From assembly GCA_951406725.2 (NCBI GenBank), contig OX597831.1, positions 7,626,001 to 7,690,000 of the forward strand: 64,000 nucleotides of DNA. Direction: 5' to 3'. The notes beneath the pieces were generated by a model. The model was given only the letters and a program-made list of their open reading frames with translations, made no database searches and was not told the origin of the DNA. A program made the translations under genes and the position numbers. Shown here piece after piece: positions 3,188-49,480 of the stretch. The DNA is from Octopus vulgaris. Taxonomy: Eukaryota. The number at the start of each line of letters is the position of its first letter. The stretch's first letter is position 1.

Positions 3188-3397
3188 TTGATTTAGAGGG
3201 TAGTTAGCAGTTATTACCCTACGGAACATTTCCACCAACCACTGGAGATTTAAAATGACAAGGCTGCGTAAAATATTGTCGACTGCCGATAAACTGCCTC
3301 CGTAGTAGATAATGACACCAAGATCGTGGTAGAAATCCAACATTGTCTGCACTTCTTGTTCATCTTCAATTCCAATGTCTAAAGCCAAGTCTGCCAC
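3188..3397 (-). CDS. Coding exon 10: COR-A; the gene continues beyond the left edge of the window
   Basis: Acceptor tttcttccaagctcag, donor CAA|GTAAGT, 210 nt, phase 0. Reads VADLALDIGIEDEQEVQTMLDFYHDLGVIIYYGG...LRSLVILNLQWLVEMFRRVITANYPLNQ, with the COR motifs LxFYHDLGxII and VILxxQWL. Confidence 0.93.
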
Positions 3398-7155: not shown

Positions 7156-7299
7156 CTGGTCTATACTTGCATAATTATTAGAATTGTCAATTAGCTGATT
7201 AATTATGTCTTCAAACTGTAACCATCTTGTGGGGATCTTTTCTCCCATGTATGGTTCCTGAAGAGCCACTTTCTGGATATGTTCACGTAAGAGGCAAAT
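7156..7299 (-). CDS. Coding exon 9: ROC-COR junction
   Basis: Acceptor ttttttaaattttag, donor CAG|GTAGGT, 144 nt, phase 0. Reads ICLLREHIQKVALQEPYMGEKIPTRWLQFEDIINQLIDNSNNYASIDQ; YMGExIPxxWLxFE marks the COR start. Confidence 0.93.
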
Positions 7300-8228: not shown

Positions 8229-8348
8229 CTGTACATCCTCTTCATCCTCACTGCCATAGTTTTCAACAGCGAAGAATGGCTTTATTATATGTTTATAATA
8301 AGGTTTCCCAATTAGAAATTCCTCCAGGGCATTGAACTTCTCCTTCAC
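8229..8348 (-). CDS. Coding exon 8: ROC G5 region
   Basis: Acceptor gtattttgcag, donor CAG|GTATGA, 120 nt, phase 0. Reads VKEKFNALEEFLIGKPYYKHIIKPFFAVENYGSEDEEDVQ; FFAVEN is G5-like. Confidence 0.9.
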
Positions 8349-8688
8349 CTGCAAAATACAGCAAGATATTTTGAAAATAACAACAACAACAATTTCTTAC
8401 ATAAGTACAATGATTTGGCCACAAGAGCCAAAACACTGAGGACAGTACAAGGACCAATAAAGACACAGCAGTAGATTACATCAAGTAAAAGGACAAAATC
8501 TTCCAGTCTCCCACTCAGATTAAAAAGTGGAACATTATGTTGAACATTTATTGATGCTTACAGAAATACAGCCTCCTTACTTTATTGGATTATAAGCAAC
8601 CGCTAGTCTGAAGGCAGCACCTTTGCTGCTGTTTGCATTTAGCAACTAAGAGTTATCTAGGTCCAAGATCATCCACATCTTGGAATTT

Positions 8689-9120
8689 CAACCTTTAGCA
8701 TTCAGATTTTTTTGTCAAATGTATTCTTTTCTATTCTAGGCACAAAGCCTGAAATTTTGGGGGAAGGAGCCAGTCAATTAGATCAACTCCAGTATGCAAC
8801 TGGTACTTAATTTATCGACCCTGAAAGAATGAAAGGCAAAGTCAACCTTGGTGGAATTTGAACCCAGAATGTAAAGACAGACAAAATACTGCTAAGCATT
8901 TCGTCCAGCGTGCTAACTTTGTCAAATGTTTGCTTATTAATCGAGATTGTTTTGAATTAATCAAGCATTATTTTGTAGCTTCAACATTTCAATTAGTGAC
9001 TTTATATATTTTTAAAGTGGTACTGTAGGGTAGGTGTGAGAGGTTGGATGTGGTCAATTTTAACATAAAACAGGTAGAATATTTGGGTCAGATATGTCCG
9101 GATTAAATGCTAAAGGATTA
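8689..9120. mobile_element. piggyBac-type MITE with a nested family A SINE
   Basis: Body is homologous to 52644-52864. The SINE at about 8725-8918 is flanked by a ttgtcaaatgt duplication. Confidence 0.65.
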
Positions 9121-10180
9121 AACCTTTCCAAAACAACTCTACAACCACACCTTCTGGTCTTGGCCAATCCCAAAATACATGACTCCAAAGTCTTCAAAGT
9201 TGGGCATGAGTGTGTAGGCCCTGGAAATCTTGTTCTTGATGGCCTGAGGTGAGTGAGCAAAGGACTTTGCTTCTAAGCCAACACCAGGCCACATGCATTT
9301 AGATATATCCTACTCTGTATATAGCTGGGTGAACTGGAGCAATAACTGGTGAAATAAAGTATCTTGCTCAAGAATACAACACACAGCCTAGTCCAGGATT
9401 CGAACTCACTGCATCATGATTGTGAGCCCGATGCTCTAACTACTGAACCATGCATCTTCACTCAGCCGTAAAAATGAGTTACAGTGCTGTTGGTGCCCAG
9501 CTGTATCGGCCCCTTTGCCTTTCCCTTGGATAACATCAGTGGTGTGGAGAGGGGAGGTTGGTATGCATGGGCGACTGCTGGTCTTCTATAAACAACCTTG
9601 CCTGGACTTGTGCCTTTGAGGGTAACTTTCTAGGTGCAATCCCATGGTCATTCATGACCGAAGGAGGTCTTTACTCTGCATATAACCAGGTTGTTAGCTG
9701 GAAGAAAAGAAGTGAAAGCCTGCTCTTTCTGTTGTTTTAAGCTGATAGTACAAAGCTCCTCCCCTTAAACAAGACACCAGTCCATCTCACAATTAACCCC
9801 ACCAGATGTCACTGAGTTTCCCTTTTTTAAATTGGAGAATTGGAGCAACATAAAATGAAGTCTTCTACTCAAAGATGCATTTCCTTCTCTGAGAATCAAA
9901 CCCAAGTCCTATTAATGACTTGGCCATCCACCTTCACAGTTGATCAACACAAGCTATTAAAATATGGCCTTACTCACAAATACTGAAACAAGAATGAGGC
10001 AAACATGCATGGCATAGAACCGACATTCTATCCGCAGATGTTTCCATTTTATACTTATTTGGTATTTGTCAAAGCTTGGTGTTTTGAGTGTCACTCAAGT
10101 TGAGTGACAGTTTCCATCACTCTGATCTGATAAGAGACTCTTACAGAGTTGGGAAGTGATCCATTTTCTTAGACACAATA

Positions 10181-10735
10181 TCATCATCATCATCGTTTAA
10201 CATCCACTTTCCATGCCAGCATGGGTTGGACGGTTCAACCAGGAGGCTGCACCAGGCCCAGTCTGATCTGGCAGTGTTTCTACAGCTGGATGCCCTTCCT
10301 AACACCAACCACTCTATGAGTGTAGTGGGTGCTTTTTACATACCACCGGCACAGGTGCCAGGTGAGGCTGGCAACAGCCACAATCGGTTGGTGCTTTTTA
10401 CGTGCCACCGGCACGGAGGCCAGTCGAGGCGGCACTGGTAATGGCCATGTTCGGATGGTTCTTTTACGTGCCACCGGCACTGGTATCACAACTGCAATTT
10501 CCATTGATTTTTGATCGATTTCGATTTCACTTGCCTCAACAGGTCTTTGCAAGCAGAGTTTTGTGTCACAAGACGGAAACGCATGCATAAGTGGACTGGC
10601 TACATCCCAGGTAAAGGCCACTGGTTATGGTCTCACTTGTCCTGCCAGGTCTTCTCATGCACAGTACATTTCCAAAGGTCTCGGTCACTAGTCATTGCCT
10701 CGGTGAAACCTAAAGTTTGAAGGTCGTGCTTCAAC
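10181..10735 (-). mobile_element. 5'-truncated RTE LINE 3' end (ORF2 tail, 3' UTR and (GAT)n)
   Basis: KHDLQTLGFTEAMTSDRDLW matches the ORF end at about 23500-23800. The same 3' UTR occurs at about 4058, 6470, 18535, 26520, 32990, 36130, 45900, 53970 and 55200. Confidence 0.85.
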
Positions 10736-10776: not shown

Positions 10777-10962
10777 CATCTGTTTCAGGATGTCTTGGTC
10801 ATCATCTAAGCTGTTTCGATGAGTGCCGACTATAAATATTGGTGGTGAGAGTGTGGAGTTTGTGATTGTGTTTTTTGTATTCTCTGCTGAATGAGCATGG
10901 ATAGACTTCATCCAATAATCTATGTAACCCAGATTGGACATGTTCTCAACAGTCTGGTCTTC
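10777..10962 (-). CDS. Coding exon 7: ROC G4 region
   Basis: Acceptor ttcttctcttcttgaag, donor ATG|GTAAGT, 186 nt, phase 0. Reads EDQTVENMSNLGYIDYWMKSIHAHSAENTKNTITNSTLSPPIFIVGTHRNSLDDDQDILKQM, with the Roco motifs YWxxSI and PPIFIVGTH. Confidence 0.93.
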
Positions 10963-19549: not shown

Positions 19550-19648
19550 GAGGTTGCTGTCATTTGTAAATTTGGTGATGGGAGACGTAGAAAGGTCATC
19601 GCAAATGTTGAAAACAATAATGTAAACAGCTCGTGAAGATAAAAACAC
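19550..19648 (-). CDS. Coding exon 6: ROC strand after switch II
   Basis: Acceptor gtttcctttcag, donor GTAAGT, 99 nt, phase 0. Reads VFLSSRAVYIIVFNICDDLSTSPITKFTNDSNL, matching the Roco pattern xFLSxRAxYxxVFx. Confidence 0.93.
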
Positions 19649-21255: not shown

Positions 21256-21540
21256 CTGATGTGTGGTATAATAGACAGCCTGACCAGCAAAGTCCCAAAT
21301 ATCCAAAGTTACTTCTTGTTGAGGAATCTCCATGCTGCTTTCAAATGTTTTCTCACATTGGTTCTCAGCAAGCCATTTTTCCGGAGACTGAAGTTCTAGC
21401 ATTGCTTGTAATTTCTCTATGGCATCGGCCTGTATACCTTTCAGTAACTGCTGTGGCACTTGTGTGACGGCACCAGGAGACACTTTACTACCAGTGCTAC
21501 ACCCTAGCATGGTGCTGTATGATCGGTTTTCTTTTTCTGT
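21256..21540 (-). CDS. Coding exon 5: end of the insert and ROC G3 (WDFAGQ)
   Basis: Acceptor tttttatttccccacag, donor CAG|GTAGGA, 285 nt, phase 0 to 0. Reads TEKENRSYSTMLG...EVTLDIWDFAGQAVYYTTHQ, the Roco G3 signature WDFAGQxxYYxTHQ. Confidence 0.95.
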
Positions 21541-25654: not shown

Positions 25655-25782
25655 TTTTTTGTCGTTTTTCTGGAAGTTGTTCTTGTTTTTGAGCTCTTTT
25701 TCCTTTTGATGAAGAACCATTTCTAGATAGACATTTAAGGCCGAGGAATCTGTGAATTCCTCTTCCAAGGCAGCTACACCGC
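25655..25782 (-). CDS. Coding exon 4: charged helical insert within ROC
   Basis: Acceptor ctcctctgcttctctcag, donor GTAAGT, 128 nt, phase 1 to 0. Reads GGVAALEEEFTDSSALNVYLEMVLHQKEKELKNKNNFQKNDKK. It is needed to bridge the phases of exons 3 and 5. Confidence 0.85.
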
Positions 25783-29912: not shown

Positions 29913-30067
29913 CAATAATATCTCTGGGAGCATCTGTTTTTTGGTGTTGTTCTTTGTCGACATTTTCACCATTAAGGTTTAGCCTCCAAGCTTTTGAATC
30001 AGATGTATTGAAAGAGCAAGACTCAGACAAATCCACACCATCCGTACTTTCCAGGGGTTGGTCATCT
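29913..30067 (-). CDS. Coding exon 3: ROC switch I (G2) and start of the insert
   Basis: Acceptor tttttatttacag, donor GTAAAT, 155 nt, phase 2 to 1. Reads KDDQPLESTDGVDLSESCSFNTSDSKAWRLNLNGENVDKEQHQKTDAPRDII. STDGVD is the Roco G2 motif. Confidence 0.9.
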
Positions 30068-41163: not shown

Positions 41164-41326
41164 TTTTGTCCCAGAAGTGAACGCTTGAGACTAGTTTTAC
41201 CAACTCTGTCTTTACCGACCAACATAAGCCGTGTACGATAGACAGCCTCACTTCCTGAACAGCAGGCCTTCTCATAGGCTTTGATAGCAGCCTCCCCTCG
41301 GACAAAGATTTCCTTAGGAGTATCAT
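41164..41326 (-). CDS. Coding exon 2: pre-ROC helix and ROC G1 P-loop
   Basis: Acceptor ttatattttag, donor GTAAGA, 163 nt, phase 1 to 2. Reads DDTPKEIFVRGEAAIKAYEKACCSGSEAVYRTRLMLVGKDRVGKTSLKRSLLGQ. GxxxxGKTS P-loop at 41190-41216. This frame is not shown in the ORF track. Confidence 0.93.
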
Positions 41327-49011: not shown

Positions 49012-49480
49012 CTGTAATAACCAATTTGACAGCTGATGTATTTCCATAGAGGTCAAGCAGGAACCACAATTGGAGGTGTGTTGGAATTCCATTCAGCAGA
49101 ACACCAATGTAGTGATTGTTGACAAACAGTTGAAGCTCTCCCATGGAATTCACATAAAATGTTATGATGTGATAAGAAACAGCAAACTTTTCGTTCACTA
49201 AACGTGCCCAGTATCCTTCCTGTTTAACCAGATCAGGATAAAGGTAACGTGGTAATGTGTGCTGTTCAAGGAAACACTGTGGGTCATTGGATGTAACTCC
49301 TATTCGTAAGGCCCCTTTCCAAGTCGTAATGCAAGTCATCTGGAGAGAGATCCGAACACCAATTTTCAGAGGTTGGTCACCAAATACAATACCATCACAG
49401 AAGTGCTTTTCATCTCGGTTAGCGTGTAGCCGATTGTTGGACAAAGTGACAGCTGACCCATGCACATGATGAAATCGCAT
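49012..49480 (-). CDS. Coding exon 1 of the NHR-ROC-COR (Roco) gene: Neuralized homology repeat (NHR/NEUZ) domain
   Basis: ATG at 49480 in context gaccATGc. Translates MRFHHVHGSAVTLSNNRLHANRDEKHFCDGIVFGDQPL...WKGALRIGVTSNDP...LPRYLYPDL...YWAR...LWFLLDLYGNTSAVKL, matching the NHR hallmarks FHxxHG, FCxGIVF, WxGALRxGxTxxDP, LPxYxxPDL and LWxxxDxYG. Donor G|GTAATT at 49011, phase 1. A likely acceptor tttattgtag at 49585-49586 would add 5' UTR 49481-49584. Confidence 0.93.

Follow-up and report, generated by a model that had tools for sequence, protein, structure and literature searches.

The window, here the whole 64,000-nucleotide stretch of Octopus vulgaris DNA under analysis, contains ten coding exons of one minus-strand gene, mapped by tblastn with four homologues and running from an ATG at 49480 down to 3188. 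These exons were mostly more than 90% identical to named Octopus proteins, and motifs G1, G2, G3, G4, and G5 followed in order within the one gene:

49012..49480, minus strand: exon 1, from the ATG, Neuralized homology repeat (NHR) (tblastn, Pfam)
41164..41326, minus strand: exon 2, with the G1 P-loop GKDRVGKTS at 41216-41190 (tblastn)
29913..30067, minus strand: exon 3, with G2 STDG at 30048-30037 (tblastn)
25655..25782, minus strand: exon 4, contributing to the long G2-G3 insertion (tblastn, model)
21256..21540, minus strand: exon 5, with G3 WDFAGQ at 21297-21280 (tblastn)
19550..19648, minus strand: exon 6, ROC strand 4, its 3' end matching contig loose ends (tblastn, contigs)
10777..10962, minus strand: exon 7, ROC helix 3 to G4, with AG/GT ends and spliced on both sides in contigs
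10813..10830, minus strand: G4 motif VGTHRN, with Asn at the LRRK2 D1455 position (sequence, family profile)
8229..8348, minus strand: exon 8, with G5 FAVEN at 8273-8259 (contigs, profile)
7156..7299, minus strand: exon 9, end of ROC and start of COR-A (Pfam, tblastn)
3188..3397, minus strand: exon 10, COR-A (tblastn)

The remaining COR sequence, the death domain, the TIR domain, and a CaaX end lie to the left of the window, down to about G000:C18:7587287; the gene spans about 88 kb. It was single-copy in the O. vulgaris genome, both in a genome search and in a second search with a stricter first look. A paralogue or pseudogene was rejected, as there was one genomic locus and the stops within matches were overruns into introns.

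Contigs from eight public runs covered exon 7 (10962-10777), which they joined to exon 6 at its 19550 end and to exon 8 at its 8348 start. The loose ends of four contigs continued into exons 19648-19550 and 8348-8229, and single records of runs X2, X10, and X18 placed exons 10962 and 8348 at adjacent positions. Because the contigs span neighbouring exons, exon 7 is spliced and expressed in octopus species, with the kind of run being a guess on the record. Two public protein models contained errors elsewhere in the gene: P0001 reads through an intron instead of using exon 19648-19550, and in P0221 exon 7299-7156 is missing and the C terminus differs. Broken frames at 13665-12496 (minus strand), within an intron, have translations resembling the end of a retrotransposon reverse transcriptase and a zinc-finger region. 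The intron at 8680-10735 is full of high-copy repeats, which the contigs of X2, X6, X10, and X18, the four runs of the second contig set, contain in abundance.

Pfam analysis of three orthologues identified a Neuralized repeat, Roc (PF08477), COR-A (PF16095), Death, and TIR_2 domains; neither an LRR nor a kinase domain was found. The preliminary description had compared this domain with the LRRK-type ROCs. Membership in the Roco proteins stood, with ROC followed by COR and with G1 GxxxxGK[TS], G2 Thr, and G3 DxxG all present, but the protein is not an LRRK, because the LRR before ROC and the kinase after COR that mark the LRRK1/LRRK2 subfamily are both absent. Its G4 ends in Asn (THRN) rather than Asp, which leaves Roco membership unaffected, since Roco G4 and G5 motifs are variable; Roco affinities are micromolar (both from excerpts of PMC6337361). 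Orthologues share the five-domain order NHR-ROC-COR-death-TIR and a single branch of the ROC-COR tree. One of them, Saccoglossus P0029, carries the name “neuralized PATS1” from its source annotation only and has the same five domains. An Aplysia MyD88-like protein, compared by annotation only, has ROC-COR, with NHR listed in the figure key of the portion of PMC9334734 available.

An AlphaFold model of ROC-COR from the Octopus sinensis orthologue P0220 had a mean pLDDT of 85.3. Its best fold matches were LRRK1, Chlorobium tepidum Roco, and LRRK2, with top matches at E values of 4e-22 to 1e-13. Together with Methanosarcina barkeri Roco2, these proteins share with the octopus protein the ROC-COR tandem, a place among the top fold matches, and intact G1 to G3 motifs. 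Unlike them, the octopus protein lacks LRR and kinase domains, has NHR in front and death, TIR, and CaaX elements behind, and shows a relaxed G4 Asp, a G5 Glu-Asn where LRRK2 has Asn-Ala, and an insertion of about 150 residues between G2 and G3 (window 30036-21298, minus strand, exons 3 to 5). The insertion was modelled as a long helix (model residues 108 to 143) with disordered linkers.

The G4 motif is encoded by GTC GGC ACT CAT CGA AAC on the minus strand (10830-10813), and position 10815 is the first A of the Asn codon AAC (10815-10813). The earlier reading of VGTHRN in place of VGTHxD was therefore correct in its codons, which lie inside a spliced exon of a gene with all G motifs in order. 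In the family profile, VGTHRN aligned with VGTHLD of LRRK2, whose G4 likewise begins Thr-His, and the Asn thus occupies the D1455 position. The G5 stretch aligned with LRRK2 FVNAT, placing Glu at N1489 and Asn at A1490. In LRRK2, guanine is bonded by H1453, D1455, and A1490 (excerpt of PMC8467336). The AlphaFold model ended a strand at the G4 Thr and continued with a one-turn helix, at a pLDDT of 97 in that block. VGTHRN was also present in named Octopus, Argonauta, and Sepia proteins, which excludes a sequencing error as the source of the Asn.

A homologue search returned 71 proteins, of which the 48 with an E value of 0 were taken as orthologues. VGTH was invariant (48/48), and the fourth position of the motif was variable, with Asn in 28 orthologues, Asp in 11, Ala in 4 (two of them isoforms of one gene), and Ser, Lys, His, Glu, and Gly in 1 each. 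Asn was found in Patella, Littorina, Lymnaea, Pomacea, oysters, mussels, scallop, Owenia, and Macrostomum, as well as in Ptychodera, Saccoglossus, Diadema, and Branchiostoma. Named records with Asp came from Haliotis, Lottia, a chiton, Mercenaria, Mactra, and several snails. No Nautilus orthologue was present among the 71 homologues or the best 150 of 20,393 profile matches. The five-domain gene also occurs in a centipede (P0077) and a tick (P0110), and the named matches included no insect, nematode, or vertebrate copies.

On a tree built without the G4 column, parsimony required a minimum of 13 changes at this site, and 8 of these exchanged Asp with another residue; V, G, T, and H each required 0, and the median for 661 columns was 10. 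The site therefore changes at about the rate of an average column (62nd to 65th percentile). Its root state by parsimony was Asn, and on this sequence reconstruction the octopus has kept an old Asn rather than losing Asp recently. A hydrophobic residue was never found there, and the site led the 14 Asn-majority columns in changes to or from Asp (8). Elsewhere in the nucleotide-binding site, 47 orthologues retained the G1 Gly/Gly/Lys/Ser and the G3 Asp/Gly in every case (47/47) and the G2 Thr in all but one (46/47).

One explanation offered for the Asn was that coleoid ADAR enzymes edit the A at 10815 in some tissues, with Asp replacing Asn so as to toggle a canonical GTPase. AAC to GAC is an allowed change that appears among the listed coleoid recoding events, and if the columns match, the published lists put first-base editing at about 5% of AAC codons in O. 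vulgaris (1,078 versus 20,634; PMC8382921, ST6 and ST7, available in part). Asp is also natural in 11 of the 48 orthologues. However, T>C at 10815 was absent from four of four spliced contigs, drawn from four studies and three organisms, in a table that did report differences at 10816 and 10806. In the second contig set, it was absent from X2, X6, and X18, which had zero, one, and one exon differences, the single ones falling at 10888; the X10 contig had two exon differences, with a position given for one of them only. Intronic differences in this second set were ignored because they derive from repeat copies. Run X14 contained T>C differences, including one at 10816 beside the site, but these were rejected as edits, being at full depth and from another organism. 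Those at 10837, 10880, and 10806 yield the residues of the genome-derived protein P0001, and the one at 10816 is synonymous.

Contigs represent majority alleles from unspecified tissues, so these results bear on majority editing only, and minority alleles would be hidden in them. All 13 full-length Logan proteins, which were seen on 125 contigs and fell into two decapodiform-like clusters, retained Asn as VGTHRN; one cluster includes a named Sepia member, and ten fragments fall short of the site. These contigs were taken as transcripts because long frames stayed intact across 4 to 6 kb. In addition, each of three local fold predictions left 10815 unpaired (pair probability, 0.20), and a search through 50 kb of the gene yielded no complementary partner that includes it. 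Since Asn is genome encoded in limpet, oyster, worm, and lancelet genes, it is an old trait of an animal family that works unedited across many phyla, and because Asn and Asp interchange freely, an edit would likely alter little. The resemblance to coleoid A-to-I sites (PMC8382921, in the part available) extends to the codon type, AAC to GAC, but the octopus Asn is not specific to coleoids and no edit was seen. The preliminary description had held that a lack of A-to-G mismatches, combined with Asn in molluscs without heavy recoding, would refute the switch. That is largely what contigs and orthologues gave, with no A-to-G change in seven of eight spliced contigs, and we consider such an editing switch at 10815 very improbable.

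To place the orthologues among other Rocos, they were combined with near relatives, namely the best 150 of 20,393 profile matches, a sample biased to the profile. From 213 proteins, 33 without a G3 anchor under the pattern used and two without an alignable G4 were left out, giving 178 ROC-COR rows. Among these rows, G4 ended in Asp in only 22 of 92 members of one clade versus 85 of 86 proteins outside it. This clade had a support of 97/97 in a 53-row subsample from which the G4 and G5 motifs were removed and two long-branch clade rows were left out. Its G4 residues were Asn (41), Asp (22), Glu (12), Ala (5), Arg (4), Lys (3), and Gln (2), along with Gly, His, and Ser. The rest of the motif was tightly kept, with Thr in 92/92, His in 91/92 (compared to 63/86 outside), and Arg or Lys at the third position in 84/92, and G5 had Glu in 74/92 versus 0/86 outside, for a clade signature of TH[RK]xS ... 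[VI]EN.

The clade contained the orthologues and paralogues with varied domains. All ten basal members looked up were echinoderm, named members of the sister group were cnidarian, and the centipede orthologue lay inside, which makes a bilaterian-stem age for the relaxation likely. Tick P0110, with the same architecture and THRD, was placed on a long branch outside the clade, probably wrongly. In paralogues P0049 to P0062, P0076, P0087, P0089, and P0153 (echinoderm where named), the partners were macro, DED, CARD, helicase, kinase, fn3, HEPN, and Ras domains, a variety that suggests an immune-type expansion. A fusion of Bcl-2, ROC, COR, and caspase domains was found outside the clade in P0106 (Owenia).

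Altered specificity or affinity had also been proposed from the Asn. In the form of a relaxed base pocket, this proposal appears plausible from the alignments, but a shift to xanthine nucleotides does not fit a clade site at which N, D, E, A, R, K, Q, G, H, and S all occur. The same exchange at the same motif position in Ras D119N and EF-Tu D138N was an engineered single change to a pocket that is canonical elsewhere, while the octopus site is natural, variable, and set in a pocket changed at several positions. For a naturally xanthine-specific ROC like engineered Ras D119N, one can cite Asn as the commonest and root state and the statement that Asp-to-Asn at G4 switches Ras to xanthine (excerpt of PMC7952092). 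Yet 20 of 48 orthologues of this one conserved gene have D, A, S, G, K, H, or E, so that Asn is not fixed. A freely varying site makes a dedicated XTP pocket, which would need a fixed Asn, unlikely, and XTP is scarce in cells. This explanation is scarcely credible, even less so than editing.

We favor, at a probability of roughly 0.55, the reading that the Asn is encoded in the genome and inherited within a bilaterian Roco clade that no longer needs the G4 Asp, and that its ROC likely remains a GTP switch with a remodelled and less strict base pocket. The near-invariance of the phosphate and Mg motifs indicates that nucleotide binding is still under selection and that only the base-reading Asp is loose. 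The lack of hydrophobic residues and the lead in changes to or from Asp fit a retained but optional guanine-type contact, although helix capping and the easy AAY/GAY transition could alone account for the preference for Asn and Asp. In such a pocket, the G4 His and G5 loop would secure the base, and the Asn or Asp contact would be optional. Affinity would be low and exchange fast with no exchange factor needed, a behavior shared with other Rocos, and the nucleotide state might govern how the death and TIR domains assemble at a membrane, with the C-terminal CaaX box as the anchor.

Sequence beyond the window bears on that last step. In the O. vulgaris genome, the reading frame ends CGLCNVL-stop (L004:135-155, minus strand; G000:C18 near 7587290). 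This kind of terminus, Cys-x-x-Leu closely preceded by another Cys, was present in 47 of 53 orthologues, with the other six being truncated or alternative models, compared to a CaaX-like tail in 5 of 160 other rows. By the CaaX rule, Cys-x-x-Leu is presumably a geranylgeranylation signal, and the C terminus is likely a prenylation signal on a Roco protein. The TIR domain contains CNREL (L002:132-323, minus strand), and CxxE[LIV] was found in 47 of 49 TIRs that were long enough; its Glu aligns with TNYELD of bacterial TIR NADases of solved structure. We take this Glu to be the catalytic residue of the NADases, and the octopus TIR is possibly catalytic. Many animal TIRs make cADPR via this Glu, according to the accessible part of a 2026 preprint (10.64898/2026.04.20.719644) whose figure key includes Roc and COR.

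A different view of the G4 changes treats the ROC as a scaffold that binds weakly or does not cycle, and whose base-reading residue drifts because the nucleotide state has lost its importance. The near-average rate of change at the site is what such drift would give, the insertion of about 150 residues sits between G2 and G3, and Ras D119N has lowered nucleotide affinity (excerpt of PMC8936000). However, decay is limited to one residue: across the 47 orthologues, the Lys of the P-loop, the Thr/Ser that binds Mg, the Thr of G2, and DxxG in G3 are all near-invariant, and we regard a scaffold as unlikely.

A stronger competitor, though still a doubtful one, is that the clade ROC lost guanine discrimination and uses mainly ATP, or ATP and GTP alike, acting as an NTPase that switches the death and TIR domains. 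At the G4 site, none of Lys, Arg, Ala, and Gly can read guanine in the way of Asp, and cellular ATP exceeds GTP. The combination of G4 Asp loss with a clade-specific G5 change also resembles SpoIVA and RhoBTB3, TRAFAC GTPases in which natural G4/G5 changes yielded an ATPase (PMC7952092 and PMC4931677, both in excerpt). For those two proteins ATP use was measured, while in the clade of the octopus protein the site flips frequently to Asp and the G5 acid lies elsewhere. In SpoIVA the Glu lies two residues past the G5 Ser, whereas here it is at the Ser/Asn position itself, and this different placement implies a geometry unlike that of SpoIVA. Also against ATP reading, Asn and Asp still account for 63 of the 92 states in the clade, with at least 8 Asp changes, and the G4 His is kept more inside the clade than outside. 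The recurrent Asp states are themselves not proof of GTP use, because restoring Asp alone to SpoIVA left ATP and GTP efficiency unaltered (excerpt of PMC7952092).

The G5 Glu was considered as a strict compensation for the lost Asp, which neither independent pairs (median p = 1) nor a covariation scan supported; no covarying column survived 2,111 tests. Loss of the G4 Asp and the G5 change fall on the same branch, a single origin that gives no phylogenetic replication. Eighteen clade members have Asp at G5, and 10 of these 18 nonetheless lack the G4 Asp.

The gene is conserved from octopus to amphioxus and is uncharacterised in the literature searched. No paper on the G4 state of the relaxed clade was found in that literature, which omits most subscription journals; PMC8195603 and PMC2575513, available as excerpts, offered general context only. 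The most far-reaching version of the argument is a speculative one to which we give a low probability: the clade may have rebuilt its base pocket and become an ATP-driven or base-indifferent switch, which in one conserved member would sit on a prenylated, membrane-anchored protein and gate a death domain and an NAD+-cleaving TIR. A rebuild of this kind in bilaterians would date to more than 550 million years ago, and such a clade, if real, would to our knowledge give the first demonstrated case of a Roco that is not a GTPase.

For cephalopod biology, an attractive story of an editing switch loses support, because the Asn is shared with animals that do not recode heavily. For the Roco family, the locus offers a natural experiment on the base pocket, in which one clade dropped an Asp that its sister clades keep almost always. 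Close relatives differ at the G4 residue, with Asn in Patella versus Asp in Lottia and Asn in Nucella versus Asp in Babylonia, and such pairs, differing at one residue, make nucleotide reading by a ROC of the LRRK2 fold directly testable. If base-indifferent or ATP reading were true, the protein would be a self-contained immune or cell-death machine that is absent from vertebrates.
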